DNA of 64,000 bases from an uncultured delta proteobacterium (GCA_963727625.1 CAVSHR010000012.1:256001-320000), one strand, 5' to 3'. Shown: positions 32,435 through 60,156, counted from the stretch's first letter. Numbers and translations: made by a program. The notes: generated from the sequence alone by a model not told the origin.

Positions 32435-32542
32435 TTGTCGCAACCTGCCCATGCCTGCCGGACGGATTTCACCGTTCGGCAGGCGTTCTCGTGTCAGCAA
32501 CTGCCTGCGCCCTACTTACCGAGTAGATATCTATAGTTATTT

Positions 32543-34847: not shown

Positions 34848-34952
34848 CGCTTCAGAAGCACAGAAAAAACAAAAGCATTTTCAGCACCAACACTCACCTT
34901 TTTTCGAAAGCTCATTTTCTGCTCCAAACCCCCGCAGGTTTGCGAAATCGCG
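34848..34952 (-). promoter_or_regulatory. CRISPR leader
   Basis: A/T-run-rich non-coding stretch between cas4 stop and first perfect repeat. Confidence 0.75.
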
Positions 34953-35528
34953 CTAAAGAACATCACCGCAGTAATTTCTATATTCGCAGTCCGCGCAGCG
35001 ATTCCTCACCGGTGTCGGAGGCGGCATCTGCTCACCTTCGATCATTCGACGAATCTCGCCGATAAGTTCGTCCGCTTCCTTCTTCCGCTCCTCGGTCAGA
35101 TCGAAAACCACGGCATCGTTCCGCGGGATGAGATAGACGAATCCTTTCGTGACTTCTCTTTGGTAGCAGTCCTCCAGCAGGCGGGCGTAGCCGCACAACT
35201 GCATCACATGGTTTCTGTGAGGCGTCCCCGTCGTCATCTTGAAATCCACCGGGAACAGTCCCTCCGGGCTATCGATCAAGAGATCCAACTTTCCACTCAA
35301 CCCAAGCCGTTTTGAGCTGACCCAAACGTGAAACTTTCTCGTGCCTTCGGCCAACCGGTATTCACGCAGCTTCCGTCTTTTCTCTAGCTCATCTATTTGC
35401 GCCTCGGCGATCTTCCCCTGCTCCATTTTCCAGGTAGTCTTCTTATTCACCGGCATGCAGTACTGATAGAAGACGACCCTCGGACAGTAAGCGTTCTGTT
35501 TTATGTCGTTGACCCTGAGCGAAATCAT
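34953..35528 (-). CDS. cas4: CRISPR-associated Cas4
   Basis: YCPR, SGKLD, PVDFK, QLCGYA, C..C.Y...C Fe-S ligands. Confidence 0.95.
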   Translation of the reverse strand: MISLRVNDIKQNAYCPRVVFYQYCMPVNKKTTWKMEQGKIAEAQIDELEKRRKLREYRLAEGTRKFHVWVSSKRLGLSGKLDLLIDSPEGLFPVDFKMTTGTPHRNHVMQLCGYARLLEDCYQREVTKGFVYLIPRNDAVVFDLTEERKKEADELIGEIRRMIEGEQMPPPTPVRNRCADCEYRNYCGDVL

Positions 35529-35803
35529 ACGGCCGCCGCTTCATCGGTCTTGCCGTTTTCCTTTATCAACCCGTCCTTTACGTCCTTGTGGCAAATCGGC
35601 TGAAGCAGAATCTTGCCGGTATTATGATTGAGTATCGACGTCAGGCGCAAAAACAATTCCTCGCGTTTATTCCGGTTGAGTGTTCCCTGAAACGCGCTGT
35701 ATTGAATGCGCGCCAACCCGTAGTCGAGACAGGTTTCGGAGATTCTCAATCGAATCCTGTCGTCCTCGATGTCGTAAATAACCAGCGTCCTAAGCTCTTC
35801 CAT
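35525..35803 (-). CDS. cas2: CRISPR-associated Cas2
   Basis: LVIYDIEDDR.R, GL.RIQYSAF.G. Confidence 0.95.
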   Translation of the reverse strand: MEELRTLVIYDIEDDRIRLRISETCLDYGLARIQYSAFQGTLNRNKREELFLRLTSILNHNTGKILLQPICHKDVKDGLIKENGKTDEAAAV

Positions 35804-35966: not shown

Positions 35967-37157
35967 TCACCACTTGAAACTGAATGCCTTATATTCCCCC
36001 TCCCCCCGCAGAAACGTAGCCAACCGTCTCGCCTGCATCTGGATGATCGACCTGATCTGATATTGCTTTCCTTGATACGGTTCGGTAGCCACCAGGCGTT
36101 CGATGATCTTCTCCGCGATAGACTTCCTCGTCTCCGCGTCGAGCAAACCTTCTTTCATGCCAATCCTCGTCCCGAGATTTACATAGGCAATCACGGTCCG
36201 ATCCACCACCGGCTGGCGAAACTCTTCGACCATATCCAAGATCAGCGACGGCTTGCCCGGTCGGTCGACGTGGAGGAAACCGGCGAAGGGCTCAAGCCCC
36301 GCGTTGAGCACCGCTCCCCAGACCTGCGAGTAGAGAATGCCGTAGCCGTAGTTTAGCAACGAGTTCACTTCGTCGGTCGCGCCCCGGTGCTCACGGCCAA
36401 AGAATTCCACCCGGTGTCCGATGATCTCCTTGACCGCTTCCCAGTAGATCCGCCCCGCGGTACCTTCCGTTCCCATGATGGTTCCCCTGGCTTCATTGAC
36501 GCAAGTGGCGTCGATGGCCGGGACTTTTTTCCACAGCGCGCGCAGTTGGGCGGCGATGGCGTCGATTCTTTGAAACCGATCTTCCGCTTCGGTTTTTAAA
36601 TATTTCCCGAAGTATCTGAGCAGCCGCTCCTGATTCTTGATCTTGCCGAGCACCACCGCTTTGCAGAACTCCAGGCCCCGCTTGTCGTTGAATGCGAGTA
36701 TCTGCTCGCGCCGCGCTTGCACCGTCGCTGTCAGCATCGGCGAACTCACCATCGCGTAGGGCTTTCCGGTATAATCCAGAAAGCTCAGGCGTATGCCCCT
36801 CGCGCAGACTTCTTCGAGGAAGTCCGATGACATGCTCATGCCCTTCGAACCGACGACGACCTCGTTAATTCGAAAAAACGGGAACTGGTAGATTACGTCC
36901 TTGCCCTTGCGCACCAGCAACCGCTCGCTCTTCTTGCTGAGAAACAAACCATACCCCGACAAGATCAACTGCGAGCCGTCTTCGGATTTCACCAGCGTAA
37001 TGCCCTCGTCGACGCGAATCTCCCGCCCCGGTTCTTCCGGCTCAGGCACCTCCACAGGAATCGGCTCGGCCGCGCCGGTGAATAAATTGAACTGAGCCAC
37101 CGAAACCGGCTTTTGAATTTCCTCCTCATGTAATTCATTCAAAGCTTGGTCAGGCAT
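35967..37157 (-). CDS. cas1: CRISPR-associated Cas1 with acidic/Pro-rich N-terminal extension
   Basis: MGTEG.AGRIYW, NSLLNYGYGIL, GLEP..GFLH, SLILDMVEEFRQPVVDR. Confidence 0.96.
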   Translation of the reverse strand: MPDQALNELHEEEIQKPVSVAQFNLFTGAAEPIPVEVPEPEEPGREIRVDEGITLVKSEDGSQLILSGYGLFLSKKSERLLVRKGKDVIYQFPFFRINEVVVGSKGMSMSSDFLEEVCARGIRLSFLDYTGKPYAMVSSPMLTATVQARREQILAFNDKRGLEFCKAVVLGKIKNQERLLRYFGKYLKTEAEDRFQRIDAIAAQLRALWKKVPAIDATCVNEARGTIMGTEGTAGRIYWEAVKEIIGHRVEFFGREHRGATDEVNSLLNYGYGILYSQVWGAVLNAGLEPFAGFLHVDRPGKPSLILDMVEEFRQPVVDRTVIAYVNLGTRIGMKEGLLDAETRKSIAEKIIERLVATEPYQGKQYQIRSIIQMQARRLATFLRGEGEYKAFSFKW

Positions 37158-37318
37158 ATTTCACCTTGGGTTCAAATCGTTCCAGCCGTTCAATGGCTAA
37201 CGCCGGTTCAAAAGTTCAACGTTCAACGCCGAATAACTCGAGCCGTTCCGGTCGTTTATTTCTTCAAATCTCTAACCTCTGCGTACTCCGTGCCTCCGCG
37301 GTGAAATATATTCAATCC

Positions 37319-38384
37319 CTAACTCGTCTCCACGATCTCGTACCAGCCGTTGCCGAACACCGCGTTCTTCCCGACATGCAGGTATTCGCCGAGCTTCAGA
37401 TACGGCAGAAACATTCCAAGATCGCCCTCGAAACTCACTTCGCCGACAAACCGCTGAGATCGTGCTGACTTCGCGCCGGCGCGAGTATCGCGACGACTCT
37501 ACCCAGCGCGTCGCGTCGGACACGGTTTTGACATTCTCCGCCGCTGCGCCGAATGCTTTGAAGTCGATGTCCAATCCTTCGCCGCAATAAAAATAAGACA
37601 GCGCATTGATCCGGTCGCGCAGACGCTTGGCCACTGGCCCAAAGGCCGGCCGCCGCGCCTAGTGACTCCATCCGCCCTGACCAGCGTCGGCGTCGAGAAA
37701 TCGCAGCGCGACACGCGTGACGTTCGCCGCGCCAAGCTGTCGCGACCATGTGGACCCATCGTTGGAATCGTAGGGGCCGACCTGCGTGTCGGCCCTGATA
37801 GGCCCAGTGCGGTGAGTTATCGAACCATTCTGATCCAAGCGACCGCACAAGTCCGCCCACGAGATCGCGTCGGCAGGCGGCCGAACCAAGTTATTTTCTC
37901 TTCGTATAAACCGGCACCGACGTCCCGTCGTGCGCCAGCGTGATCGACGCCAGCCAACTCCACCGGCGCTCGATTCCGGCCCAAGCCCAGCCTGCGAAAG
38001 CTCTTTGAACGTCACGATGAAGTAAGGGAGATAGTCCTTGATCTTTCCCACCAGAACGACATCGAACGACAACCGTTCGCCCGGCAGATACGTTTCCTTC
38101 GTCTCCAGCGGCGGCTTGATGACAAACGGCCGGGGAATATCCCGGTTCTTGCTGATCTTCTCCGACCCCTTCGGCACAAACGGTTGGAACACCGCCGTGT
38201 ACGGACACACGCTCCGCAACTCGCAGGTTTCCGGCTCCCGGCAGTTCGCATGGCACACGATCCGCCGAAACGCGCTGCCGAAACCGCCGCGAATCACGTT
38301 GCCCTTGTTATACGCGGGCATACGCAACGGCGCCTTAGGCTCGAGGTGAAAACGAAAATGCTGGAACGAAATACAGGGCAACAT
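37319..38384 (-). CDS. cas6: CRISPR pre-crRNA endoribonuclease Cas6, frameshifted
   Basis: YNKGNVIRGGFG.AFRRIVC..C..C....CPY..F, PRPFVI, and C-terminal HVGKNAVFGNGWY G-loop in another frame. Confidence 0.87.
37770..37796 (+). repeat. GTAG-type REP-like palindrome inside cas6
   Basis: GTAG-GGGCCGAC-CTGCGT-GTCGGCCC. Confidence 0.65.
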
Positions 38385-38390: not shown

Positions 38391-38798
38391 TCACTCTTCC
38401 TCGGCGATCAATCTCTCCAGTACCTGTTCACATTCTTCGACAAAGGCTAACACCTCGACTGGGATGGCTTGCGCTTCCTTTCTTGTAACCGTGGAGAAAT
38501 CACCGTAATCGCTCTTCTGCCGCTTCTCGAAAGCGCGGGGCAACGCCTTAGCCGTATCCGCCTTAATCAGTCCAGACTTAACGAAATGCTTCTGGAACAG
38601 AGTGATCACCCCGCTGTGTCTCGATCAGTCCACCTCGGTCAGCGCCAAAAGGGACCGAGCCGCATAGAACACCGCGTAATAGAAGCGATTCACCGCGCCC
38701 ATGAAAGCGCTCTTGGTCAGCAGATGCTCGCCTTCCGCAAAAGTTTCCTTAGCACGGCCGAGACGATGGCGCGCGAGCTTTTCAAGTTCCCGCTTCAC
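38391..38798 (-). CDS. HEPN-domain protein (UPF0332-like), frameshift near 38625
   Basis: AVNRFYYAVFYAARSLL, H.GVITLF..HFVK.G, FEKRQKSDY. Confidence 0.83.
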
Positions 38799-39142
38799 AG
38801 CGAAATCCTTTCTTTCGCAATCGCTCGAAGAAAAGGCGTAATGCTCCACACCGGATCGGAGAGAGTTGAGCGGTCAATGACCCGCGGCGAGATATAGACG
38901 TCATGCTTGAGGTTGACATCGAACGCGATGTCCAGAACCCGATCCTCGGTCTCCAGGCCGTTCCGATTCACGACGACGAGCACATCGATGTCGGAATCCG
39001 GTTGATCTCTTCCCGTGGCCTTGGAACCGAAGAGTTTCGCCTCAAGCAAGTTTTTCCCTAGAGCGGATCGCAAACTCCGCAAGAATTCCTCCAGCGCCGC
39101 CGCATCGCTGGATTTCAGCTTCAAACGTCGAGTCATGTTCAT
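38795..39142 (-). CDS. Minimal nucleotidyltransferase (MNT) of an MNT-HEPN pair
   Basis: LFGSKATGRDQPDSDIDVLVV (GSx10DxD). Confidence 0.88.
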   Translation of the reverse strand: MNMTRRLKLKSSDAAALEEFLRSLRSALGKNLLEAKLFGSKATGRDQPDSDIDVLVVVNRNGLETEDRVLDIAFDVNLKHDVYISPRVIDRSTLSDPVWSITPFLRAIAKERISL

Positions 39143-39564
39143 GTCCTTCCCATTGCGATGGATGGAAACCAGCCTGATGCCTTTTCCGTTTCCATGTTTT
39201 TCCCGTGCGGCGGGCTGGAAAACTAGCCCGTTCCGCTTTCGCGATCTCCTTTACGTGCCCTGGTTTTCCCCACCGTTACCTCTCCCGACAATAGCGCTGC
39301 GATATCGCAAACGACCCTATCGAGGCGTCTGTTTGCCAGGCGACGCTCCGGATAGCGCAGCCCCATTTCACCCGCGTTCCGGCTGCCGTTAAACAGGCGG
39401 ATGATTTCGATCTTGCGCCACGTTCTCATCGGAAACTCCGGCGCCACCTGTTATAATTCGACTTCGAAAGCCGCCTCTATCCAAGCGACTTTCTCAAACA
39501 TTTGGGCCGAGCGGTATTTGCCGATCTCGGTAGCAAAAGCTATATTGTCTTGGAGGATCTCTCG

Positions 39565-39828
39565 ATGGCCAAAGTAATGGTTTCCATCCCCGACGACGTT
39601 TTGAAAAAAGTCGATAGCACCGCGAAAACCCAGCGCCGCTCTCGCACAGAAGTCATTCGCGACGCGCTGCGCGCGCAAATGAGCAAGCAACGGGAAAATC
39701 ACGGCAAGTGGCAAAAAGCCCTGGCTCCGCTGCGGAAGCTCGAACGGCAGTGGATCGGCCAGTGGGATTCGACCGACATCATTCGCTACTACAGGGATAC
39801 CCGCTATGGCCGGGAAAATCGTTATTGA
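39565..39828 (+). CDS. RHH/CopG antitoxin (VapB-like)
   Basis: MAKVMVSIPDDVLKKVD..A....RSRTEVIRDAL; GGAGG RBS. Confidence 0.85.
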   Translation: MAKVMVSIPDDVLKKVDSTAKTQRRSRTEVIRDALRAQMSKQRENHGKWQKALAPLRKLERQWIGQWDSTDIIRYYRDTRYGRENRY

Positions 39829-40240
39829 CACATCAGTCCTGATCAAATGGATAAAGACTAAAGATGAGGAATTGCTCGCCGAGGCTCGTCGCCTTCTGAA
39901 GCAAGTGGAAACAAAAGCTCTCACCGTCCACGTCCCTGCGCTTCTGTTATACGAAATCGGCAACATCCTTCTTATCAAAACCGACCTCGATCCGGATGGC
40001 TTGGAAAAAGCCGTTGACGATCTCGAGGCTCTACCATTTATCGTCGCTCCGCCAGCAACGCCCCTTCTACGTCGCGCCAGCCGCGTTGGAAAAGAGCACG
40101 GCCTGACCTTTTACGATGCTTCATTTCTCGCGCTCGCCGTCGAGTTGGATTGCCCACTGGTGACCGCCGACCGCCATTTTTTCGACCGCACTAAGTCCCT
40201 GCCGCGTGTTCGCCATCTCTCCAAGGTCGGCACCCTCTAA
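39806..40240 (+). CDS. vapC: VapC PIN-domain toxin
   Basis: IVIDTSVLIKW, YEIGN, LTFYDASFLALA, LVTAD. Confidence 0.9.
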   Translation: MAGKIVIDTSVLIKWIKTKDEELLAEARRLLKQVETKALTVHVPALLLYEIGNILLIKTDLDPDGLEKAVDDLEALPFIVAPPATPLLRRASRVGKEHGLTFYDASFLALAVELDCPLVTADRHFFDRTKSLPRVRHLSKVGTL

Positions 40241-40324
40241 AGTTCGGCATACGACAAACGATCCGGGAATACCAATACAGTGCCCTGTCCTACTGTTGCC
40301 TGTTGCCTCACGCCTCTATCCATC

Positions 40325-40511
40325 ACACACGATCCGCCCTGCCTGTGCCGACACGGCAGACAGGCGAAACATGCTGCCAAAACCGCCGCGAATCACGTTG
40401 CCCTTGTTGTACCTGCCTGTGCGTCGCACGCAGACAGGCGGGCATGTGCAACGGCGCTTTGGGCTCCAGGTGGAAGCGTAAATGAGCAAACGAAAAACCA
40501 GTAATCATCAC
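40325..40511 (-). pseudogene. Degenerate second copy of cas6 5' end with two small palindromic insertions
   Basis: FSFAHLRFHLEPKAPLHMPA and NKGNVIRGGFG match the cas6 start; interrupted by CCTGCCTGTG...CAGACAGG elements. Confidence 0.8.
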
Positions 40512-40566
40512 CGTTGCCTACGTTCGTGAGTTTGGGTACACTTTTTTCCAAACGGAGGAAATTTTT

Positions 40567-40818
40567 ATGTCAGTTACCCAACTGACCGCAAAAGGGCAAA
40601 TTTTAGTACCCAAACACCTGCGACGTAAACTTGGGCTCAAACCCGGCGGCAAGGTGCATCTCGACGAAGAAGAAGGACGATTAGTCCTCACCCCGGTTCC
40701 TCCTGATCCCATCGAGGCGGCCACGGGTTTTTTAAAGGGCCGATTTTCTCTGACTCAAGATCTCCGCCGTGAACACCGCGAAGAGGCGCGCCGTGAGCGA
40801 AAAGCTCGTTCTCGATAG
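40567..40818 (+). CDS. AbrB/MazE-type antitoxin
   Basis: LTAKGQILVPK.LRRKLGLKPG. Confidence 0.88.
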   Translation: MSVTQLTAKGQILVPKHLRRKLGLKPGGKVHLDEEEGRLVLTPVPPDPIEAATGFLKGRFSLTQDLRREHREEARRERKARSR

Positions 40819-41200
40819 TTTTGCCCTCGTCAGTCTCTTTCATCGCGAACCCGGCTGGCAGGTCGTCCAAAAGGCTCTCTACGATCAAGACAAATCGCGC
40901 GCCCGCGCCGTCCTCAGCTGGATCAACTGGGGCGAGTTTTACTACATCGTCAAGCGACGCGTCGGCGTCGCCAAGACGATGGACGCGCTCCGTCTCCTCT
41001 AACAACTGCCCGTCGACCTCTTTCCGGTAGACCACCCGTTGGTCCGAGCCGCAGCGGAAATCAAAAGCGAACACGCACTCTCCTACGCCGACGCTTTTTG
41101 CGTTGCCACCGCCCAACGCCTCGACGCCACCGTGTTAACCAACAACCCCGAGTTCGAGTCGGTCGAAAACCTGATCAAAATCCGCTGGCTGACCAAATAA
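40793..41200 (+). pseudogene. vapC: VapC PIN toxin with in-frame TAA at 41000
   Basis: LVLDSFAL, INWGEFYY, then after the stop LSYADAFCVATA...VLTNNPEF. Confidence 0.8.
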
Positions 41201-41299
41201 CCGGCTCCAGCCGATCTTCGCCGAACAATTACGCACCTCTACGCCTCTAGTCACGTCGCACGCAATTCGTCACTCACGAGCACGAACACGGCCTTTGAT

Positions 41300-41351
41300 C
41301 CCTCCGCCGAAACGCGCTCCCAAACCCGCCTCGAATCACATTACCCTTGTT
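41300..41351 (-). pseudogene. Third cas6 5' fragment overlapping the end of cas3
   Basis: Reverse strand reads NKGNVIRGGFGSAFRR, identical to the cas6 peptide. Confidence 0.72.
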
Positions 41352-43336
41352 GCCTCTTTTGTTCTTTTCCAAAGCTCCAAAAGCAACAATGCCGCTCCGT
41401 CGAAGGCGACGATATATCTCCCCGCCTCAAAGACCGCTAACCGCCAATCCAACTGGGATTCGACCTCCACCTTCGGCACGACCGTGAAGATATGATTTTC
41501 CCGTGCCATGAGATCCGAAACGGGTGTTGACTCACCGTCCTGGTAGAGTCGCAACTGTGGCCACTTCTGTGTCTCGTGGATCATGCCGCAGTCGTCGTCA
41601 CTGAATATCTCGCTGGCATGCACCCGGCGGTACTTTCCGATCCCCTTGATTGTCAGCATATCCAACTTATTGTTCCAAGTGAGTTCCACGGCACGCTTCA
41701 GGAGCGTGGCCAGGTCAATGTCATATTCGCCCAGATTCCATTCCTTGCGCCGGCGCTGCTCCATGAAGTCATGAATCCTGATACTTGGTAGCGATGTCCG
41801 GAAGCGGTTCAGCCGGCGGTACACATCAAGCCAGTGGGCGCTTTTCTTCCCAGCCGCACACCGCTCAAACGCGCCTTTGGCCTGTAAGTTCTTATCCGGA
41901 CATCCGACGCGCTCCGCAAAGTCGGCCAGAATAGCATCGATCTTCTCGCGCAGCTTGGAAATTAATTCCGGTTTCACGTTTCGGTCTTTCTGAACTGTTG
42001 CGATCAGATTCTCCCCCTGGGCTCTGACCGTTGTCATGCCACTTTCGGTAGTTACAAACCAAGGGTATGCACTTGCCGAAGGGTACCAGGCATAGACGCG
42101 CTCCTCGAAAGTGGCTCGATCAATCGCGGCCGGCAAAGTACTCATCCCCTGAAAGGCGTTGGGTGGGACCAGAACAATCGCCTTTCCTGGCCCATGACGA
42201 CCCACGCGGCCGAACCGCTGGAGGAACGAAGCCGCTTCCAAAGCCTCGAAGAAAAGATAATCGCAGCGAAAGTCCACCCCCACCTCGATGGCTGAGGTTC
42301 CGAGCGCCAAGAGTTTGCCTCTGGTGTCCCTTATAGCCCGGTGCGGAGCCCTCTGATGATCGCCAGCGAGTTCCGGGTAAAACCCGACTCCACCAGCCGA
42401 TCTTCCAGACGGATGGCGTTCAGAACCGAATTAACGATAACCACCGCCGGCAGGTAGTCCTCATCAGGGATGTCGCTACGCAACCTTTCGAGTTCAGGCC
42501 TAAGATCGACAATTAGAGAAAGGAGAATTTCAATCGGGTCCCCACCCGTAAGTTGGATCGGCTCGACCTCGACGGAATGGACCGCCGTGCGCGAGCACCC
42601 AGATGCAGAATACGTTTCGATATGCGAGTCAATTACCGTCGGACTGCTCGCCCGGTCCAACAGTAAGCGGACTTGCGGATGCGGTGTCGCGGAGAGCAAA
42701 ACTAACCGCCGGAAGATCCCAAACCCGCGGGCAAGTGCAACCATAGCAAGGGCATGGGCCAGCTCTACGCCCTGATAAAGGTGGAACTCATCCAGAATCA
42801 ACGTCTCGTAGCGCCTCAGCGCCTCAAAGGGCTCGGCGTGATACCGAAGCCCCAGGATAAGAAACAAAATATCGGGATTGGTAAAGATGATCTTGGGCTT
42901 GTCCGGATCGAAAAGCCGTCGCAACGTTTCACCCCGACTTTTGCAGTGCATCACATCCTGCCATTGATCCAGAAGGTTGCCGTCCACAGGAATCAGGACG
43001 TGATCTGCGCGGCTGTATAGCTCGGCTCGATCAGAGGCATGCCACATTTCCGGCAGCCACACGAGCGGCTCGATTCCGTCTTCCATCGCAAACTTCGCCA
43101 CAGCTCGCACCTGATCCCTCAAAAGCTCATTAGTGGGATATACCCCTACCGCCCCCTCGCGCCGCTTCAGTACCGGCAACATCGCCGCCCGCGTCTTGCC
43201 GGTTCCCGTCTTCGCCGCCAGCAATATTGTTGGGATGCTTCTCCCATCCCTCCCACATCGCCACTTGGTGCGGATAGAGTGGCGAATGCGACGCCGGATG
43301 ATCGATCAAGGCAAGGCGAAGGTCACTCACTCGCAT
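41336..43336 (-). CDS. cas3: Type I-D Cas3' helicase (no HD domain), two frameshifts
   Basis: LYPHQ, AKTGTGKT, YPTNEL..DQ, LDEFH, LLSATP, GTSAIEVGVDF, QRFGRVGR. Confidence 0.9.
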
Positions 43337-43355
43337 TGGACAAACTCGCTCAATC

Positions 43356-44190
43356 TTACGAAATAGAAACGGTCACTTTACCGCCTCCAAGACTTTTCTG
43401 GCCTCCCAAAACTTCGACTTTATTCAAGGCGGTGCGAGAACCTCGTTCAGCAGAAAGAGCTGCCGTTTCGCATCATCAGGTTCCGTCCAATACTTGAGCC
43501 AAACGTCCACCTCAACCCCACCAATGGTCCGACATCGACCGAATGCCGCGCCTTGACGCTCCTGAAATATCAGGAGTTCGCCGCTGAAGACTGATCCTGG
43601 TTTCACTTGTTCCCCTGTAACAATGGCGCCTGGCGCTGCCGTCTGAGATTTACAATTATGCGAATCCGCGTCTGGTCAATGCGCCACTCACCGGGTAAGG
43701 GAAACAAGTTCGGAATGCGCAAATAACCTTCCAGACCTGTCGCTCCAAAAAAGTATGACGGTGGACATAGACCATTTTGTGAAACTTGGACTTTGTCATC
43801 CTCAACCCTAATCTCTGAATGTTCACGTCGGTAGCCTTTGGTAAAAAGATCCTGTTCTGCCTTCGAAGGACGTGGAGCCGGGATTGACGGCTTGAGTAAG
43901 TCGGTTTGATTGCCGATTAGTCCAAGGCTACCCGTCAAAACATCCTTCTTCTGAATAAAAAGTTGCTCCACCTGTTGCCGAAACGCACCTTTAAAAGATG
44001 ACGCAGGTATCACAGGCTGACCGTCTACGGTGAAAACCGGCTGTTTTTTCTCCGTCAGAGGAGAGGGTGTCCCTCCGACATGTAAAAAGGACCCATCGGC
44101 TACAACAATCTTAAGTGGTAAAAGAAAGACTTTCTGGTTACCCAATTCCTTGACATCTGGCAAGCTTGTTAACTTTTCGATGGCTGCCAT
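43356..44190 (-). CDS. Csm3/Cas7-group RAMP (type III-like), frameshifted
   Basis: FLHVGG, PVIPASSFKGAFR, C.P..FFG, TRIRI, PGSVFSG and terminal LGGQKSLGGGKV G-rich loop. Confidence 0.85.
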
Positions 44191-44759
44191 TTTAGCACCT
44201 CCACAATTTGGGTGAGTGAATCGAGCTTACGCACGAAGAAGGCAATTTCGAGGAAATCTACGTGTTGTTCATAGAGTCCTTGAACGACTTGAAACAATGA
44301 CGTATGAGCTTGACGGTCTCGGTCGTTCTTCTCTTTGTGAATTTTGTAAAGAAAGAACTGCTCGACAGTGGTTCGATTGTGTCCCTCGATAACCCTTCCA
44401 TAGTCATCAAGTTCGTTCTTTGAGAGGTTGGAAAGGAGCGGACCGAAATTATTCAGCTGATCCACAAGGTTTCGGACTAATGGAGACTCGTTGTTAACAT
44501 GCGTCTTCAACCCCAAGAGCACTCGTTTGGCATCTTCCCAATGTCTTTTCTTCGTGTTGTCTCGCTCGCTATTGATACGAATAGCTATCGTCTTTTCTGC
44601 GGAATCTAAGATCGCGAAAGCCATAGCCTTATCATTCCGTCGTAAAGCTTCACGGAACTCCGACCACTTCTCCTTGTTTACGAGTTCTTGTGGCATCCAA
44701 AAGATCCGTCGGTCATTGAGTACCCGCCGAATTGCCGCCTCAAGGGGGTTAGCGGTCAT
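44169..44759 (-). CDS. Alpha-helical putative small subunit (Cas11/Csm2-like)
   Basis: Helical composition; coupled between two RAMP genes; assigned mainly by position. Confidence 0.55.
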   Translation of the reverse strand: MTANPLEAAIRRVLNDRRIFWMPQELVNKEKWSEFREALRRNDKAMAFAILDSAEKTIAIRINSERDNTKKRHWEDAKRVLLGLKTHVNNESPLVRNLVDQLNNFGPLLSNLSKNELDDYGRVIEGHNRTTVEQFFLYKIHKEKNDRDRQAHTSLFQVVQGLYEQHVDFLEIAFFVRKLDSLTQIVEVLKWQPSKS

Positions 44760-45420
44760 AGGTATATTCCTCCCCAATCAAGAAATCCGGGCCGCTCAAA
44801 ATAGTATCAGCGAACAGCGCACGCTCATATCGTCCACCAACGCGGTTTGAGTCCGGTCGGAATAGATAGCTGTAGCAAGGCCGGACTAAATCTTGTGCCA
44901 GGTCGATCCCGAAAGCTGGAGCATCGGTTTCCCGCAGGTGTCCGCGTAGATACCCCACTCGCCGTATTGGCGCGACCTCTTCGACATAGTCAAGCGAGCA
45001 TTGCCCGAATCCCTTTGACCTCAGTGCTCCCAGCGTCACGGACCAGGGACCTTCGCCTAGTGAAAAGACAGTCTTGGCCTCTGGAGTGGCGGCGACATAT
45101 AAGTCCCCTTCGATCTGTGTTCGCCCTGTCGCCGGAATGAGGTGCTCTACGGTTAGTGGTAATTTGGCTGTCAGGAGGCACACATCGAACGGCGCATATG
45201 TGAAAATTTCCTTGCGGTAACTTGCCGGTTGGAAAAAGCCGATAGCGACGGTTTCTTTCAGACCAAAATGTTCATAGAAACAGCCCATTAGAGTCGAAGT
45301 CGGCAAGGTTTCCACACAGGGACGAAACGTTCCTTTTTTAACACGTTCTCCAATCACCACAGCTTGAGTAGTGAGTCGCAGACGGATGAACGTAGGTAAC
45401 GGAGTGCGAGCATTAGGCAT
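44749..45420 (-). CDS. Cas5/Csm4-group RAMP (type III-like)
   Basis: LPTSTLMG, LGALRSKGFGQC G-loop; follows the Cas10-like gene. Confidence 0.75.
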   Translation of the reverse strand: MPNARTPLPTFIRLRLTTQAVVIGERVKKGTFRPCVETLPTSTLMGCFYEHFGLKETVAIGFFQPASYRKEIFTYAPFDVCLLTAKLPLTVEHLIPATGRTQIEGDLYVAATPEAKTVFSLGEGPWSVTLGALRSKGFGQCSLDYVEEVAPIRRVGYLRGHLRETDAPAFGIDLAQDLVRPCYSYLFRPDSNRVGGRYERALFADTILSGPDFLIGEEYTYDR

Positions 45421-47466
45421 GGAGCACTCCACCACGCTGCATATTGGTGCCAACCAGGCGATAAAAGTCTAAGACCTGACGAGGCTGAGTCGGTGAAACA
45501 CCATTAGTTCGTGAATCTGTGGAAAACGCCGTCGTTGTTCCAATGCCTGAACCAGTGCGGTCATCTCTCCGCCCTGCGCTTCGATGTCTGCAAGACGATG
45601 GAGAAAATGACTAAGCCGCTCACCAGTAAGTTTGTTCCTAAGAATCATATAGTGGTCGATAGTTAGGGCCACTTGGCGGATTCCCGGCTGTTGAATGCAG
45701 ATCACAGTACCGGGCTGCTGTAGCTCTAAGAAGAAGCTCCAGTGCTCATGGTAGGGATACTTGGGATTTCCCAAGCTCACGGAGATACGGATCGGACAGT
45801 CCGCGACGCATTCAGGAAAGTGAGACCGTAAAAGCTGGACGAAGCGGTCCAAGACCGCTCCCAGCGTCTCAGAGCTATCTAAACGAATGATTCCCAGTTC
45901 GAGGTATCCTGAGATGGGGAAGAGCAGGGTTTCGCCCAACTTCAGCAGCGAGGTCCCGCCACTGTCCATCAGGTTCTCCAGAAAATGTCTGAACTCTTGG
46001 AGAAACTCCTTATACTCCTTCACGAATTCCATCTCGGCCGCTAAGGGACGGAAGCCATCCTTGAGGTGCTGTTTATCCTCGGGCGTTACGTCGTCCATTC
46101 CCGGGCCTGTGTCTACATAAGCCTCGAAAAGGCGCTGCAGACTAGAGAGCAGAAGTCTTTGATCAAGCGAAACCTTCAGCCATGCCGCCGCAGGGAATCC
46201 CGTCTCTTCCCAGCGAGCATAAGTGCTGGCTGGCTCGCCTAGTAATCGTATCTCTCGACAGGACTCACACAGCCATTCCCTCACCTGATCTTTGAGGAAC
46301 TCCCACCCCTGACGTTGCTGGCACAGGTCGCAGAGTGGAGGCTCAAGTAAGGGCTCCAAGTCCGGAGAAACGGCAATATGCTTCAACTTGAGATACCGTC
46401 CACCATCCGTGGGCTCTCCCGGAAATTTGTTCTGAAGCTGGTTCCGCACCCGCTCACCGGTGCTCGTTAGGAGGTTAAGTTCGGCTTCCAGCTCTTCACA
46501 CTCGATCCAAAAGCCTTTTTCCCATAGGGGGCGTAACACCTCTCGCAGGGCCAGGTGATTCTCTCGGGCAGAAAGAAACAGACGAAATCGTCCGTGTGGA
46601 AAAGAACCGCGTATGGCTGACGCTCGGCGTCACCGTACGTTCGTTGGCCAGTTATGATTTCATCAATTTGCCGGTGCCGCAGTTCCAGGACATTGAGATC
46701 TTGAAGTCGAACAAGAGATTGGGGAAATCGAACAAGACACTTGATGATACGGAAGACCCATTTGCCATGCACTGTTTCTTGCTTTGTGCCAAGTAATCCA
46801 CCAACAGCCTCGCGAAGTGTGGCAACAGACTGTTGATCGTAGACGAGGTAGGGCGTCCCAGTGTCGGCGTGACCCATGGAGATATACTGGTTGACGACAC
46901 GAAAGATCTTTCCCGAGAGTTCTAGATGAACTCGGAGCGGAATGAAATTGCTCGGTGGTGATTTATCTTCTGGTGTGAGACGCAACTCGTGGTGAAAGCG
47001 TGCGAAAAAATCGGACGGTGAGGTGTACTGATCGAAGGACAGCATCATCCCTCTCAAATCATTCGTTGTCTTGAACGCTGCCCAGTTGAGCCCTTTCTGT
47101 TGTTCCTGAGGGAAGAATTGCGGTCGCCAGAGGAGATGTACACCTTCGCCTCTTATTTTCGGCCCTTTCACCTCGATCCGACTAACCGATGCTGCAGTGC
47201 CATCAGCGATCTTCGTTAGAAGGATCAGGGCCTTTTGTTCCGTAGTTGCGGTACATTGCAAGCTATAAAAGGGCTGGTCAGGTTTAAGCTGATCAGACCA
47301 AACAGCCCACCAACTTGAAGCAGATGGTGGTGAAACGCCAAGTGCAGTCGAGTCTATGTCATGGACCGTCTGGCGTTTCGACATTTGGCCAGATGTTCGG
47401 TAGACATTCCACGTCCATCAGCTTACCGATGTCATGAAGCTCAGCGACAAATGGCAAGTCGGTCAT
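45413..47466 (-). CDS. cas10: Compact HD-Cas10-like large subunit with degenerate palm (no GGDD), frameshifted
   Basis: Start at 47466 reads MTDLPFVAELHDIGKL; later IADGTAASVSR, PED....IPLRVHLEL, CDLC...CESC Zn finger, ISVSLGNPKYP. Confidence 0.75.
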
Positions 47467-48245
47467 TAGGCTTTGCTCCTTCGACGTTTAGGCCTCTCTG
47501 GCGCCTCCCATAGCTTTGAGTCGGGTAACTGTCCTGTATCTGTGAACCTTCTCGGGACATGTACCCGGTGCTCACCAGCGAACACGAACCAGTCCTTCTG
47601 GATCTCAGCGACACGAAAGATCAGGTGTGGGGGAATAGGCAGCGGGTCGTACGAGACGATCTCTCCCTGGACGTCTAGCGGGTTAACCGCGTGAGTGGGG
47701 CGAATTACGTGATCGGTAAAGACAGCCACTGCTCCCGTGATCTCCTGCCAGTCGAGGCGGATCGGGCAGCCTTTCTTACCAAGTCTCACGACGGAAGGTG
47801 GCCGGAATGAGCCTCGGGTAAAGAGGTAGAAGCTAAAACCGGGCAGGTCACCAGCGGCCGCACCGTCGTGCCACACAGGATCGAGAACGAGGCGCCATCC
47901 CAGCGCCGGGCTATTGCTCCCGCGGGGAGCGTCGTCAGTTCTAAGAGTGCGTGAGTTAATGGCGTTTTGGGTGAGACGGGTTCGAGCCGATAGCGTTTGC
48001 GGCCGAGCCGGAGTGGCGTAGGCTTGCATGGCATTAAGGTCCTCTGCGTAACGCGGCGTACTCCCTGTATAGATTCCATACGAATAACCGCAGAGTGCGT
48101 AACTCAGGGCGTAGTTGTGAATCAACGGCAGGGTGGCGGCGGTCTTTGAGATCTCAAATGACGAAAACCACAGGTAATCGTGGTTATAAAGACGGCCCGC
48201 GTAGAGCCGAATTCCCTGAGCGCTGAGGTCAACAGTATCGCTCAT
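47466..48245 (-). CDS. csc1: Type I-D Cas5d/Csc1
   Basis: HDYLWFSSFE, IHNYALSYAL, P..VRLGKK, VNPLD, PP. Confidence 0.9.
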   Translation of the reverse strand: MSDTVDLSAQGIRLYAGRLYNHDYLWFSSFEISKTAATLPLIHNYALSYALCGYSYGIYTGSTPRYAEDLNAMQAYATPARPQTLSARTRLTQNAINSRTLRTDDAPRGSNSPALGWRLVLDPVWHDGAAAGDLPGFSFYLFTRGSFRPPSVVRLGKKGCPIRLDWQEITGAVAVFTDHVIRPTHAVNPLDVQGEIVSYDPLPIPPHLIFRVAEIQKDWFVFAGEHRVHVPRRFTDTGQLPDSKLWEAPERPKRRRSKA

Positions 48246-49201
48246 GATGCACTCAAAACTTTCTCCCCTTGGGCTCTACGATACTCGGTAATGTCGTTGT
48301 ATGCCTTGTCGAGGAAAGCCCGATCAAGAGGCGTTTGAGCGCACTCATGGACTAGAGTGTCTACTTCGGCAGGTTCGAGTACCAAAAGGCGATCGGATTC
48401 CCGGCGAGCTCTTTGTATTTTTGCTCTAGAAGCTTCTTCAGAGCTGCGGAGTCCAAACCGTCTTTCTGGTCGTAAAGTTCAAGCGTTAATTCCAGAGGCG
48501 TGATCATTTCCTCCCATCCGGCAATAACACCAAAAAATGTATTCCGGCAGTCGCCGCCGATGCGTGATTCGGCACCATAGCTCTTGCAAGCCAGCAGGGT
48601 TTTCACCGTAAGAACCAATTCTTCTTGCGTTACCCCCTTCAGGGTCACAATGGAAGGAAAAAGGCTTGCGGGTTTGACGACATTTCGACTACCCAACGCC
48701 TGACCGGTTGTCTGGTCCAATTCGCTGACAGCGTTAAAGGTAATCTCTTCCGAGATCTGATCGAATGGAAGGAGAGAGAAGGCGGTCGAATATTCGATCC
48801 TGTGTTTGATGTTCGCTTCTTGGCTAAGCGCGGTCGCGCCGTACAGTCCGCAGCGCGGACACCGGAGACAAAGATTGTCCTTCAGATAGCACCCTTCGCC
48901 GTTCTTTCCGGATGGAATCTCCTTCCCAGTAGCAGCCGTGGCGGACCGAAGCAGGTATTCCATTTCGCGGGATTCGGCGGCTTTCTGTTTGGAGCCAAGA
49001 AAAGCAACCCGCTTCGCTGTCGTACCCCGATCCGCCTCGGAAAGGGGCGTGTTGACAGAATTCAGCTCCGCGTTTCTTCCGTCCTCAGCACGGTATAGTC
49101 GAGGATTCCCATAAGAGAATAAGCTGGACGGTTTCAGCTCCAATCAGCGGCCGTGGCCTGTCGATCAAGTAATTCTTCAGCTTCTCTGCCACAATGGTCA
49201 T
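48242..49201 (-). CDS. csc2: Type I-D Cas7d/Csc2, frameshifted at both ends
   Basis: SKQKAAESR, C.LK..LC..CP.C.LYGA, RIEYSTAFS, FPSIVTL, YGAESR.GG. Confidence 0.9.
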
Positions 49202-49809
49202 TTAGTCCTCCTCGTCAGTAGTGACACCCTGTGACTCCCAGAACACAGTAACGTCCTGCTGCTTCGCCGTAGCCTTCTTGCTCTTCGATCCCTCAGCTTT
49301 CCGCGGAAGGTAAAGGTCATCAAAAGCAACGATTTGCTCCCCCCCCCAGGTCTCCGAAAGCTTCGCCTCGGTATCGTACTTGTTACGAACAAATCCTATC
49401 CATGCCTGGCGTCGCATCTCCTTTGATTCGAGCTCCGTTTACGAAGGTCGTAATAGAGCCCGTAGTCAAGCCGGTCGAGCAGGCGATCATGCGCCGTGAT
49501 GGGAACTTCGGTGAGTAAATTGACTATCCGGTCGATTCCCTCTTCGAGTGCTTGAAGTCCTGCCGGAGTCGGGCCCTGTTGTCGCTTCGTGGACACGGAC
49601 GGCGTAACCTTTGAGAGAGGCGGGATCGCGCCGCCTCTTCACTTCACTCAGGATCTTTCCAACCGGTCCCATAAGGCCATGCTTCGAGCAGTTGACTTCC
49701 GAGGCACTTCATCGAGGTAGCGAGTCAACGCCTCTCGCGCTGAGTCGATTTTGGGTTGGACGGTCTCGATATCAAAAGGCTTGGTCTGGACGGTAATGGG
49801 AACTCTCAC
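49202..49809 (-). CDS. Separately encoded Cas11d-like small subunit, frameshifted
   Basis: AAGGAGG RBS and GTG at 49809 overlapping the cas10d TGA; helical, H.LM.PV..IL, LKGY..R.HE. Confidence 0.6.
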
Positions 49810-52467
49810 GGGCGCACCTCCTTTTCCCGGGCTCTGTGAAAGGCTGGCAACTGCTCGATTAAACTAATCTAACGCGGCGTAAGTGATGTGTCGCCTTTTT
49901 CCTCAATACGACGGGCGAGCTTTTCCGGAGGGTCCATCGTAAGAATCTGATAAAGAGCGGAGCGAGCGGGCAGACCGGTATCTCGCACCAACAGGCTTGC
50001 CGCGCCGATCGCGGAGAGCCAACGTTTTGCCTCACCGATGGGCAGCCAGTCGTAGCCCACAAGAGAGCGGACCGCCGGGATCGGAGGCACGTAGGCTGCC
50101 CCTAGTCCGCCTCGGAAGTCCACTGGTTCATCCGTCTTGTGAATCGCCACAGAGGCGTCAAAGACAAGGCTCAGGAGCAAGGCGACATGGAGCCGCCGCA
50201 GCCCTCGGCTCGTTCCGATTCGTCGTTACCGGACGCGATTTCGTAACTAAGCGGGATGAAGATCAAGTTAGGAGTCTCGCAAATTAGATGTATCGTTTCA
50301 TAGAGGCGGAAGACCTCCCGACGAATCGCCCTGAACTCCTGCTGATTAATTCGATTTGCGATGAGGGCCTCAACAGCATCGTCCCATGTCCCGAAGGATT
50401 GACCAGTAGCAAGATTAAGGGCTTCGAAGTCGTTATCGAACTCCTCTTTAAGCCGTCTCATCGCCTCTCGTCGTCTTTTCTGCTGGGTGTCGGCGGTAAA
50501 CCGGTAACTGAAGAGCGAGAGCAGTTCCTCGGGCTTTAAAGAAAAGGGGTCACGCTCCTTTAAGTGACGGGCTGCTTGATCAGTGAAACCGAGCGAAAAT
50601 CCGAACTCCAGGTTGCCGGTTTCACCTCGCATCTGCCCTTTGGCTGCCTCCACCCATCCCTGGACTTTGCTGACCAACTGCTCCCCTTTCCCTGGCCCCA
50701 GGTTGAGTCGGGGTAAAAGCGTGATCATTTCCGCCGGACGACTCCCGAGAAGTATCTGGAGGAGGAGCCGCTCGTAGTAGCAAGTGACACAGACCATGAT
50801 GTAACCGAAGGAGCCATGCGCTATCCGCGGTTAGTGTGCGTCTGTGGATTCTCGATGAAGTCGGCCGAGGCTTTGATTCCATCATTATGATCGAAAGAAG
50901 CGTTACAGATCGGACACAGGTAAATTCCCTTCGCGCTCTCTTTTCCAGCAAAGGGCTTTGACTCTGTGTAGTGGCTTAGTTGCTGTTGAGCAATAGCTTG
51001 AACATTACCACCGTCTGTGGGCTTGAGGAGATCCTTGGATGAATGCTGTGGCCATGTCCTGAGATAACTTATCTCTCGGCGATGGTCGGTTAATTGCTAA
51101 ATAGACCTTCTGGACGATAGCATCGAGTAGCTCAATCAATACCTGCACGCGAATCTCGTTTGGAAGCTCTGCGACCTTCGTAACTTGAGAGTGGCCTACC
51201 GCCGCACCTGGCAGCGCCCAGAAGTAGTCGATAGTCTTTCGCATGTCCTTGGCTGGCATGATGGTGGATGTGGACTGGAGCGCAGCCCAACTGCCAGACC
51301 CGAAGTTTTCCTCGTAGAGCTTCTTGGCTAGGACAGCGCCATCCTCACCAACAACCTCGACCTTGTCCGGGTCAACATGGCCTTGAAAAACTTGAAGACG
51401 AGCATCTCGGGCTGGGCTACGGAGATACGAGCCGCTTCTTCCTCAACCTGTGCATCCGTGGATTTGGTGGTTCGACCCTGGAGTTTCCAGTAGTCCTCAA
51501 CCACTTTGCGTTTTGCCGGCAGCTTCTTCTTGGCGAAGCTTTGCGGACTGATTTTGCTTGCGGCACTGCGGAGGTACTGCCGGGATTCGCTGAAAGCGAA
51601 GAGATCCGGCTTTGGTAGGATGTTGCCCGTAGGGCTTCGAACCATCAGTGGGGACATATCCCTTCTGATGGCCCGGTCAATTACCATCTTGAGGCTGTCC
51701 CCAATCTCCTCCGCCGTGGGCATATTATGGTGATCGCTGGGGTCGGCTGCATATAAAGTGGCGTTGGAGAAATAGAGGGAGAGGCTTCCACCCTTGTTGC
51801 TGGAAAGTGCTTCGGGCGGCGTGGTGAAGGAATGCCGTCGAGACGCCCCGCACTATGGTTTCGTGAGCTGCTACGATGAGATGTCGACCCAGCGCGGGAT
51901 CATTTTTCAACACGTCCTCGGCATCGGCAACCGTAGCAGCGGAACAGAACTGGTCAATAGCTTTGACCAAATAGGCCAGTGTGAGAAAGCGATCCGACCC
52001 GCCACTAAGCATCGCTTCGAAGATCTCCCCGTCACTTCTTCCTGGCCGGTTGTAGTAGAGTTCACGCAGTGCGCCATGATCCGCTCAACCGCTTCACCTT
52101 GTTTCGAAAATCCTAATGTCGCACAAACCTCCGGTATCACTGCTCTGGTCAACTCGGGAAGAATGTCCGGCACCCAACGGTCCGGCCGGGGGTCCCGGAT
52201 GTAGACCTGCCAAGCGTCAGTTTCTTTACCGATATCGTGGGCGAGCACGGCGATTACCAGGACTGCTTCTTCGTTTTCACTTAGGCTATAGTGTCGCGGG
52301 CTTCCCAGGATCGGCAGAAGCTCAAGGAGAACGTCAAGCTCAATCAGGCTGTGCTCAAAGAGGCTCTGTTCGTAGCCACGGCGCTTGGCGAGTTTCTCTT
52401 TCCAGCCACGCGCCTGCATCCACGCTGCCGCTTTAGTCATGATTTCCTGTCGATCCATTTTCCACAC
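49806..52467 (-). CDS. cas10d: Type I-D large subunit Cas10d/Csc3 with N-terminal HD nuclease, many frameshifts
   Basis: SLFEHSL...LAHDIGK HD motif, AIDQFCS, CPIC...C.TC Zn finger; upstream of csc2/csc1. Confidence 0.8.
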
Positions 52468-52482
52468 CCAAGAAAAGGCTGC

Positions 52483-52866
52483 TTAACGTAAGGACTTTTT
52501 AAACCGGACGGTCTTAGCCGGCTTTGCTGCCACGTTCCAAGTAACCTTCCAGGCGACTTGCAGCTTTATGGAGCCTGGAAAGTTCATCCTTTGTAACTCT
52601 TGCACTCCCTCCTTTAACTTGAACCAGCATAATCGTAAGCTCATCGGGAGATCGGTTGTCGCGCTTGACCGCGACAAGGTCAACGACACCTTTGTATTCG
52701 AAACCCATTCGGCTATCGAAGGAAGCAACTTTCATCCCGCCTTACCAAGAGCATACTTCGCAAACGACTTGGCGTTTCGAGCCGTAGCATGAGCCTTTGC
52801 GCTCGCCCGGCGCCACTTCCTAGTAATCGCCGCTCGTTCTGCCGGCGTCAATCTGATCACTTTCAT
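52483..52866 (-). CDS. Small PD-(D/E)xK nuclease-like protein, frameshifted
   Basis: GVVDLVAVKR...LVQVKG motif; co-oriented directly upstream of cas10d. Confidence 0.55.
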
Positions 52867-52876: not shown

Positions 52877-52988
52877 ATACCACAGACGTTTGTCGAATCG
52901 TGTCACATGTTTTTAAAATATTTTCAGGCAGACTGGATTAGGGTTTCGCGTAGGATTTCAGCGACTTCCCCAGGTCGTCTTTGATTTC
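52877..52988. repeat. Direct repeat copy (WYL 3' tail plus downstream sequence)
   Basis: Nearly identical to 53887-53998. Confidence 0.9.
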
Positions 52989-53122: not shown

Positions 53123-53668
53123 CTAGCGTTTGCCATAACGCGCCGGTTTTTCCTCGACCAGGAATCCGATCTTCTTTTTCTTAGGCTCCGGCGGCGTCAT
53201 GAGCTGGCGTATGGCCTCGAATAGGGACCTAATGTGCATGTCATGGCTTTCGAACTTGCGCTCCAGGGCCTCGAGCTTGTGAGCCAAGTCCTTGTTCGAC
53301 AAAATCATGTCCCTTAGCCGGACGAAGGCACGCATGATTTCGATATTGATTGCAACAGCCCGCTCACTCTTCAGCACGCTCGATAACATGGCGACTCCCT
53401 GCTCGGTGAAAACGTAAGGCAGGTACCGCCGCCCGCCGCGCCGATTCTTTGAGATCACAATTTGTGATCTCAAAAGGTTAGCTTCTTCATCCGACAGTTG
53501 GAACATAAAATCCGATGGAAATCGATTAGAGTTTCGCTTTACGGCTTGTACTAGAACACGGGTTTCAACCCCGTAGAGAACTGCTAGATCGGTGTCCAGC
53601 ATAACTTTATGACCGCGGACCAATAGTATGAGTCGCTCAATCTGCTCGGTTGGGATTATGCCTGCCAT
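53123..53668 (-). CDS. ORF6N-domain DNA-binding protein
   Basis: [51 protein letters not shown]. Confidence 0.93.
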
Positions 53669-56920: not shown

Positions 56921-57002
56921 AGACGCGCGCCCAGGAGCCGCGATCAAGCGCGGCGTTTTTCCGACGCCGCCGGCGAAACTGGATGGCGATCGTTCGCAGC
57001 GC

Positions 57003-57842: not shown

Positions 57843-57915
57843 CGACCGCTGCCCGCCTCACGACGATGCCCGATGCCGCGTGCCGCGGTGTCGGCGCTTG
57901 AGTGCTTGGCAAATC

Positions 57916-60148: not shown

Positions 60149-60156
60149 CGCGTCCC

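Follow-up and report, generated by a model that had tools for sequence, protein, structure and literature searches.

A candidate composite CRISPR-Cas operon with a type III-F effector cassette nested inside a type I-D operon of an uncultured delta proteobacterium

Results

Gene content and order of the locus

A 64,000-nucleotide stretch of DNA from an uncultured delta proteobacterium (GCA_963727625.1, CAVSHR010000012.1:256001-320000), referred to here as the window, carries a CRISPR-Cas locus between positions 32516 and 52467, with all genes of interest on the minus strand. Along that strand the order is cas10d, cas11d, csc2, csc1, then a block of HD-cas10f, cas5f, cas11f and cas7f, followed by cas3', toxin-antitoxin genes, cas6, cas1, cas2, cas4 and a CRISPR array. 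Judged from its sequence, the locus is a class 1 CRISPR-Cas operon of composite build, a type I-D operon that encloses a complete type III-F effector cassette. Two effector modules share a locus with a single cas1, cas2, cas4, cas6 and array, as is characteristic of complex loci, and the operon contains duplicate parts, namely two HD-bearing large subunits and two each of Cas5, Cas7 and Cas11. The effector genes are as follows, with E-values given for profile matches.

49869..52467, minus strand: cas10d, the type I-D large subunit in its short form, lacking a fused Cas11 and bearing a Cas3''-type HD domain; six or more single-base frameshifts
49202..49863, minus strand: cas11d, separate small-subunit gene, frameshifted
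48242..49143, minus strand: csc2 (cas7d), frameshift near 48394, N-terminus uncertain
47466..48245, minus strand: csc1 (cas5d), intact
45469..47466, minus strand: cas10f, the III-F large subunit, in which an HD motif lies at the N-terminus and HTDD replaces GGDD; two frameshifts, one near 47400 and the other within 46540-46629
44749..45420, minus strand: cas5f, intact, 223 amino acids from the ATG common to its relatives; matches PDLC02151 (Cas5_IIIf) at 6.3e-40
44169..44777, minus strand: cas11f, intact, probable start at 44759; matches PDLC01223 at 6.9e-31
43424..44190, minus strand: cas7f, Csm3-like RAMP protein, one frameshift within 43603-43675
41336..43336, minus strand: cas3', type I-D helicase that lacks an HD domain; reading frame broken at about 43235 and at about 42345

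The type I-D module combines an HD-bearing Cas10d, a helicase-only Cas3', Csc2 and Csc1, the set that marks this subtype. Five fragments of cas10d match the PADLOC Cas10d model PDLC01192 with E-values from 1e-49 to 1.4e-75. The HD region of Cas10d is matched weakly by PF01966 (the Pfam HD family, 0.0071) and TIGR01596 (2.4e-4), the Cas10d alignment shows no variation at residues H74, D75 and K78, and a histidine lies upstream of the HD, as in Cas3. Csc2 is recognized by PF18320 at 3.8e-37 (128.5 bits against a cut-off of 25.5) and by TIGR03157 at 1.3e-30 (106.8 against 38), Csc1 by TIGR03159 at 1.9e-19 (70 bits, the cut-off being 41.4), and Cas3' by TIGR03158 at 3.6e-26 for the N-terminal piece (92.1 bits against a cut-off of 69.1) and again at 1e-10. 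PADLOC, Pfam and NCBIfam models gave no match to an HD domain in Cas3', and most of the named ones among its 561 homologues go under type I-D Cas3' or CRISPR-associated helicase Cas3.

The small subunit of this module is encoded by a gene of its own downstream of a short cas10d, whereas translation of Cas11d from an internal start within cas10d is described as conserved in type I-D systems in the available text of a review (PMC10212523) and a preprint (10.1101/2020.04.18.045682). The piece at 49202-49438 matches the PADLOC model PDLC01194 at 1.4e-15, a tblastn search with the Cas11d of a related locus, L003 (described below), covers 49223-49797 of the window, and that intact counterpart itself scores 9.6e-76. 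A separate cas11d following a short cas10d is found in the window and in five further loci treated below (L003, L037, L058, L063 and L080). The short Cas10d family is sizeable, with 102 clusters at E<=1e-30, mostly of 870-940 amino acids. The separate cas11d is a lineage variant, and membership in type I-D stands, PADLOC having a dedicated Cas11d model.

Subtype III-F was reportedly defined by Makarova et al. in 2020 as an HD-cas10 with an inactive cyclase together with cas5, cas11 and cas7. The nested cassette has the features of this subtype: an HD-bearing Cas10 without GGDD, a single Cas7, Cas5 and Cas11, and no ancillary CARF or SAVED effector. Two fragments of cas10f match PDLC01558 at 5e-29 and 1.9e-47 (PADLOC) and two fragments of cas7f match PDLC02150 (Cas7_IIIf) at 4.8e-39 and 7.7e-15, with an additional match to PF03787 at 9.4e-9. 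Homologues of Cas5f (n=159) are mostly 212-227 amino acids long.

The cassette is joined closely to its surroundings. The TAA stop codon of csc1 (47468-47466) shares its final A with the ATG of cas10f (47466-47464), forming a TAATG overlap, while cas5f, cas11f and cas7f mutually overlap or abut, and about 85 nucleotides lie between cas7f and the start of cas3' at 43336. No additional open reading frame (ORF) fits between csc1 and cas3' beyond the four cassette genes. A promoter and terminator scan detected no promoter-like or terminator-like site at either cassette junction, its overall counts being not above those for shuffled sequence.

A preliminary description of the window had proposed this gene order with these identities, a III-F-like module nested in a type I-D operon, two HD large subunits with paired Cas5, Cas7 and small subunits, and one cas6, one cas1-2-4 set and one array at the locus. 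PADLOC, Pfam and NCBIfam-type profile matches, subtype-specific ones among them, together with two protein folds agree with it on all of these. The overlap that it reported at 47466 is present in the sequence, and its single operon holds as far as stop/start overlap and the missing terminator-like site can tell. Its label 'cas11d-like' was right about a small-subunit gene and too weak otherwise, the gene being a true separate cas11d.

Features of the III-F proteins

On translation from the ATG at 47466 an HD motif appears at the N-terminus, unchanged in 15 of 15 Cas10f relatives, in keeping with the 'HD-Cas10' of the preliminary description; a +1 frameshift about 60 nucleotides past the ATG hides the motif from lists of ORFs. 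The motif is at the very start of the protein, where type III Cas10 has it as well. The HD of Cas10f may be of the permuted and that of Cas10d of the unpermuted kind, a reading that rests on the available part of the review PMC10212523. At the aligned GGDD position, matched by alignment and not by structural superposition, the window has HTDD and its relatives vary (STAD, ATSD, HTHD). This lack of conservation is consistent with inactivation of the Cas10f cyclase, and III-F is described as having lost cyclase activity in the accessible text of PMC11229360.

An AlphaFold2 model of the L003 Cas10f (predicted local distance difference test score, pLDDT, 84.6; predicted template modelling score, pTM, 0.88) agrees along its full length with Csm1 chains of type III-A, the top match being 9g9e_A (E 3.6e-9, probability 1.00, template modelling score 0.46). 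The corresponding model of Cas7f (pLDDT 83.9) matches Csm3-type chains, with 6o7e_C as the best (E 7.1e-9, probability 1.00). When the Cas10f profile was compared with PDB sequences, the strongest match, at E 0.02, involved the zinc finger of a III-D Cas10, and no III-F chain was found among solved structures by this sequence search. A lack of structural matches for the four inserted proteins, which the preliminary description had named as fatal to its proposal, was not encountered for the two that were modelled, whose folds match Csm1 and Csm3, and all four match III-F profiles.

A recent duplication was considered as the source of the paired subunits. The Cas10f and Cas10d profiles are unrelated (hhalign probability 0.6%), and the I-D and III-F modules are therefore not recent duplicates; recent paralogy was ruled out.

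Recurrence of the arrangement in other genomes

Other III-F loci were located by a scan seeded with alignments of the Cas5f homologues (159 matches), which gave 34 loci in species-representative genomes and 14 in metagenomes. Sequence reaches 3 kb or more upstream of the III-F genes in 31 of the 48 loci and 2.5 kb or more downstream in 28; 22 loci have both. Type I-D genes stand beside the III-F cassette in two of them, L003 and L037; the arrangement recurs but is rare. Locus L003, from a metagenome-assembled genome labelled Desulfobacteraceae, has the order of the window with every gene intact (PADLOC): cas10d (866 amino acids), cas11d (211 amino acids), cas7d, cas5d, an ORF6N-type gene (PDC-S05), cas10f (675 amino acids), cas5f, cas11f, cas7f, cas3', a 185-amino-acid ORF, cas6, cas1, cas2, cas4 and the array. 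Locus L037, on a metagenome contig, runs cas10d, cas11d, csc2, csc1, cas10f to cas7f and cas3' in long open frames throughout. Its csc1 TGA overlaps the cas10f ATG (ATGA), and toxin-antitoxin genes lie between cas3' and cas1, as in the window. Protein identity between the window and L037 is 53-79% for the I-D module, 64-81% for the III-F module and 75% for Cas3', and between the window and L003 31-60%, 60-75% and 49%, respectively.

These occurrences bear on whether a III-F contig was falsely joined into a type I-D operon during assembly, an outcome that the preliminary description had pointed to in the form of chimeric joins at 47466 or 43350. In favour of such a chimera, no contig from four public metagenome runs bridges 47466 or about 43350, an observation that is silent on presence or absence. 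On the other side, two independent assemblies show the same order at 41-81% protein identity, one of them, L037, with overlapping stop and start codons. Because L003 and L037 carry the same order, a chimera is excluded for practical purposes and we give it only the slightest of chances.

Among 61 relatives of the source genome (G000), Cas5_IIIf was found in one, G000 itself. To gauge selection, ratios of nonsynonymous to synonymous substitution rates (dN/dS, Nei-Gojobori) were calculated for gene pairs including csc1, cas5f and cas11f of the window and L037, the I-D genes of L003 and a further locus, L058, and the III-F genes of L003 and L037; two pairs with stop codons were left out. Fourteen of 17 pairs gave values of 0.05-0.17, and dS was saturated in the remaining three. 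By this measure, both modules are maintained by purifying selection.

The cas5d/cas3' junction and the history of the cassette

The genome of L003 contains L058, a second locus with this type of Cas10d, ordered cas10d, cas11d, csc2, csc1, ORF6N gene, cmr1, cas10b, cmr3, cmr4, cmr5, cmr6, cas3', 185-amino-acid ORF and cas6. A type III-B module thus occupies the csc1/cas3' junction, the same place as III-F in L003. At the DNA level the two loci are 86% similar from cas10d to the csc1 stop codon, where the similarity ends, to resume in cas3' at 71%. Synonymous divergence between them is 0.25-0.45 for cas11d, csc2 and csc1 and saturated for cas3', and because divergence differs in this way the blocks have different histories. 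Separately, an internally deleted cas3' remnant lies upstream of cas10d in L058 (18746-19314), which hints at an earlier tandem or rearranged arrangement.

We surveyed samples of four phyla with the Cas10d model PDLC01192. In the phylum of G000 it was detected in 1 of 401 genomes (G000 itself), and a sample of the same phylum from G461 likewise gave 1 of 401 (G461 itself). The phylum of G463 gave 4 of 401 with one informative locus, that of G1265 gave 3 of 361 with two informative loci, and that of G1264 gave 2 of 361 with none informative (contig of 2.4 kb). In three loci of the same I-D lineage, L063, L080 and L081, cas5d is directly followed by cas3', with a gap of 3 to 32 nucleotides or a 14-nucleotide overlap. 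The normal order of the lineage, as these sequences have it, is cas10d-cas11d-cas7d-cas5d-cas3'-cas6; from the plain order of cas10d to cas3' it follows that the hybrids are insertions at the cas5d/cas3' junction. Among the four loci found through Cas10d and not through III-F, one (L058) has a type III insert.

In a 26-row tree of Cas5f, Cas11f and Cas7f, the three cassettes of hybrid loci group within a clade of five with a Shimodaira-Hasegawa-like approximate likelihood-ratio test (SH-aLRT) support of 98, its other members being L006 and L038, both non-hybrid. A single origin of the hybrid state is compatible with this tree without being shown by it (support 76). The metagenomic locus L038 (166-6387) has the four-gene III-F cassette between cas1 and cas2-cas4, which suggests that the four III-F genes move as a unit.

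The repeated use of one junction invites a stronger interpretation, that in the I-D lineage with split-off cas11d the cas5d/cas3' junction is a dedicated, translationally coupled cargo slot for type III cassettes, holding III-F in three loci and III-B in a fourth and creating obligately co-expressed dual-effector systems. We consider this form of the proposal rather improbable. In its boldest version the HD-Cas10 type III complex may also use the downstream Cas3', as a living analogue of a proposed step from type III to type I.

A related possibility is that the modules are functionally integrated, with III-F (or III-B in L058) recruiting the I-D Cas3' or swapping subunits, and the junction being a selected docking position. 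Shared Cas3' or subunits had been suggested in the preliminary description as well. It is true that cas3' directly follows the type III cassette in four of four hybrid loci, that two different type III subtypes occur at the same junction and that the junction is translationally coupled. Against this, 28 III-F loci have 2.5 kb or more of downstream sequence and a cas3' is present in only two of these, the hybrids, stand-alone III-F loci doing without it, and the plain order already places cas5d beside cas3', so any insertion there gives this picture. A III-B module can fill the same slot, Cas10f and Cas10d cannot be aligned at the profile level (the 0.6% above), and L003 and L058, lying in one genome, may trace to a single event followed by a swap of cargo. 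A complex prediction of Cas3' with Cas10f residues 1-240 gave a score of 0.00, a 'no answer' that counts neither way. Functional integration is on balance very unlikely, and the earlier suggestion was not sustained.

Processing and adaptation genes, the array and crRNA sharing

Downstream of cas3' the locus continues with the following features.

38391..41335, strand unspecified: toxin-antitoxin cassettes with PIN, MazE/RHH and nucleotidyltransferase plus HEPN-like genes, about 3 kb between cas3' and cas6 (Pfam)
37272..38384, minus strand: cas6, frameshifted; matches PDLC01477 at 1e-38 and 6.2e-13
35967..37157, minus strand: cas1; matches PF01867 at 7.9e-69
about 35576..35797, minus strand: cas2, located by tblastn with L003 Cas2
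about 34959..35525, minus strand: cas4, located by tblastn with L003 Cas4
32516..34850, minus strand: CRISPR array, 32 repeats of 37 nucleotides with a spacing of 66-84 (mostly 71-76)

The array copy most distant from the cas genes is degenerate. In a genome-wide search all 32 matches to the repeat core (32/32) lie inside this array, so that no other array has this repeat. The source genome has a second, unrelated CRISPR-Cas locus of type I-B (MYXAN-like) on contig 9 (L074, 1-13843), which comprises WYL, cas6, cas3, cas8, cas5, a cas4-cas1 fusion and an array with a different 36-nucleotide repeat. Stand-alone III-F relatives L006 and L004 have repeats with a 3' end of ...ACTGAAAG or ...ACTGAAAC and a similar stem, as in the hybrid loci.

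It is plausible, going by these features, that both complexes load CRISPR RNAs (crRNAs) from one array, because cas6 and the array each occur once in the locus, because the arrays of stand-alone III-F loci resemble the hybrid repeats, and because the genome's only other array has an unrelated repeat. The III-F cassette has been inserted exactly at the cas5d/cas3' junction and is translationally coupled to cas5d. In the scheme that we propose, one Cas6 would cut transcripts of the single array into crRNAs with an 8-nucleotide 5' handle, to be loaded into two separate complexes, I-D and III-F. The I-D Cascade with Cas3' would attack double-stranded DNA flanked by a protospacer-adjacent motif (PAM); degradation of PAM-flanked DNA by these components is established for type I-D (available text of PMC10212523). 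The III-F complex would recognise transcripts complementary to its guide, relying on the HD nuclease of Cas10f and dispensing with cyclic-oligoadenylate signals, such action on transcripts without a second messenger being a prediction for III-F. One set of spacers would thereby feed two interference layers with different escape routes. We regard a composite I-D and III-F operon with two effector complexes fed by one Cas6 and one array as the likely reading of the locus.

Two observations on this part of the locus stand apart. Within the array, about 2.5 repeat-spacer units are duplicated exactly (32993-33173 and 33356-33536) and another spacer recurs at 98% (32966-33030 and 33616-33680), which may reflect recombination or an assembly artefact. 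The 5' coding end of cas6 is also present as two partial copies that flank the toxin-antitoxin cassettes (repeats at 38266-38313, 40365-40412 and 41308-41355), a sign that cassettes may have been inserted, or recombination may have occurred, repeatedly at the start of cas6.

Frameshifts and the state of the locus

At least 15 single-base frame breaks are spread across cas10d, cas11d, csc2, cas10f, cas7f, cas3' and cas6. To check them against short reads, as the preliminary description had advised, Logan contigs of the four public metagenome runs were aligned to positions 41300-52500. The contigs differ from the window by 20 single-base insertions or deletions (indels), and 9 of the 12 listed fall exactly in the overlap between successive frame pieces: at 52064, 51777, 51372, 51037, 50824 and 50212 in cas10d, at 48394 in csc2, and at 43235 and 42345 in cas3'. 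Further indels in csc2 are at 49068 and 49106. All frame junctions of cas10d, csc2 and cas3' under contig cover (9/9) coincide with a single-base indel, and several of these are present in contigs from three of the four runs. A 606-nucleotide contig, about 99% identical, differs from the window by four letters and two gaps, both gaps at frameshift sites. Because all covered breaks are absent from near-identical short-read contigs, the frameshifts are most likely assembly errors, as far as alignment can tell. At 43279 some contigs end loosely, apparently because the N-terminal part of cas3' is more diverged there.

Several observations weigh against the two-complex operon as we read it. The contigs, 90-99% alike to the window and covering most I-D genes and cas3', come from related strains in other samples, and none at 90% or above covers 43544-46909 in the III-F genes, so that the three breaks of these genes fall outside the comparison. 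In L037 no cas6 was detected between cas3' and cas1, and a shared Cas6 is therefore not universal among the hybrids. In the Cas7f alignment the catalytic Asp of Csm3 has no clear counterpart, which makes RNA cleavage by III-F uncertain. Finally, it is in defence genes that the frame breaks are concentrated (both CRISPR loci, hsdR, and one PIN and one HEPN-like gene), the window's ATP synthase genes (about 57000-63200) read through intact, and the indel sites are not long homopolymers.

This last group of points would fit real decay, in which the architecture is genuine but the locus is a decaying relic in this strain, its frameshifts are authentic and neither effector is made. Every disruption is nevertheless a single-base indel, with no large deletions seen, the nine covered junctions are intact in contigs from up to three of four runs, and in L003 and L037 the orthologous genes are unbroken and subject to purifying selection. 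Long-read metagenome assemblies are also typically polished worst where strains vary. We hold decay to be unlikely, though it is the most serious competitor of an operon with two working effector complexes. In L074, cas3 and cas8 are likewise broken into several frames.

Neighbouring genes

Directly upstream of cas10d, an ORF6N-domain gene (PADLOC candidate PDC-S05, 53123-53668, minus strand) is flanked by 112-nucleotide direct repeats that are 97% identical (52877-52988 and 53887-53998); its homologues in L003 and L058 lie between csc1 and the type III module. Further upstream of the operon are genes for a SEC-C-motif protein (54131-55489, minus strand) and a WYL-WCX regulator (55603-56595, minus strand) (Pfam). 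WYL regulators are named as frequent partners of I-D systems in the available text of PMC10212523. Positions 2714-17472, upstream in the window, form a defence island with a type I restriction system, an ATPase-TOPRIM gene of the OLD family, pieces of Fic domains and a nuclease of the YhcG/DUF1016 kind; its hsdR is split in two frames at about 3916-3970 and its hsdM is intact.

Discussion

Loci of hybrid type, in which several interference modules accompany one adaptation module, have already been described as a class (Bernheim et al. 2020, Nucleic Acids Research, PMC7145637; the 'Hybrid' class of CRISPRCasTyper, bioRxiv 10.1101/2020.05.15.097824; both in their available parts). The present locus is like the complex loci covered in the accessible text of PMC7145637 in having one cas1-cas2(-cas4) set, one repeat type, effectors of types I and III and a proposed layered interference. 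For the combination of types I and III, that text proposes a two-layer protection against escape mutants and anti-CRISPRs. It describes clusters that are often separated by CRISPRs or other elements, whereas the cassette here is inside the type I operon with overlapping codons, and it gives I-B with III-B as common, most other type I subtypes rarely sharing a locus, in contrast to the pairing of I-D with III-F. The same source reports on Marinomonas mediterranea, where a III-B system uses the crRNAs of a I-F system as a second line against escape mutants. There the loci are separate and sharing was shown experimentally, while here a single operon is concerned in which sharing is deduced from the gene complement and the repeats.

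Both modules also compare with their own subtypes. Type I-D of Synechocystis and Sulfolobus, as treated in the available text of PMC10212523, has in common with the locus the HD-Cas10d, Csc2, Csc1, a helicase-only Cas3' and a WYL gene nearby, and differs by the internal translation of Cas11d. Most III-F loci are said to be without arrays in the accessible portion of PMC12669027; here the I-D operon supplies cas6, adaptation genes and an array.

The preliminary description knew of no characterised locus like this one. Full-text searches agree with it for the pairing of I-D with III-F, but the wider class of hybrid type I/III loci had already been described (PMC7145637, available text). The supplementary locus tables of PMC12669027, PMC7145637 and PMC11229360 may already list I-D/III-F hybrids. 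Four features appear to be new, full-text searches having given no description of them: the pairing itself, a cassette that lies within the operon and is translationally coupled to it, the presence of III-F in three loci and of III-B at the corresponding junction of a fourth, and the I-D backbone with a separate cas11d gene. Experimental or structural characterisation of III-F was likewise not found, PMC11229360, PMC12669027 and PMC13676074 mentioning the subtype only in passing in their available parts.

For subtype III-F, the hybrid operons provide a complete native context, with a Cas6, a repeat, genes for adaptation and a promoter that a DNA-targeting partner also uses, and L003 is an intact version ready for cloning. 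For type I-D, they document a sizeable lineage with a separate cas11d, set against the internal translation that the literature gives as the rule. The recurrence of type III cassettes at one I-D junction offers a clean natural case both for guide sharing by effectors of types I and III and for the swapping of effector modules within operons.

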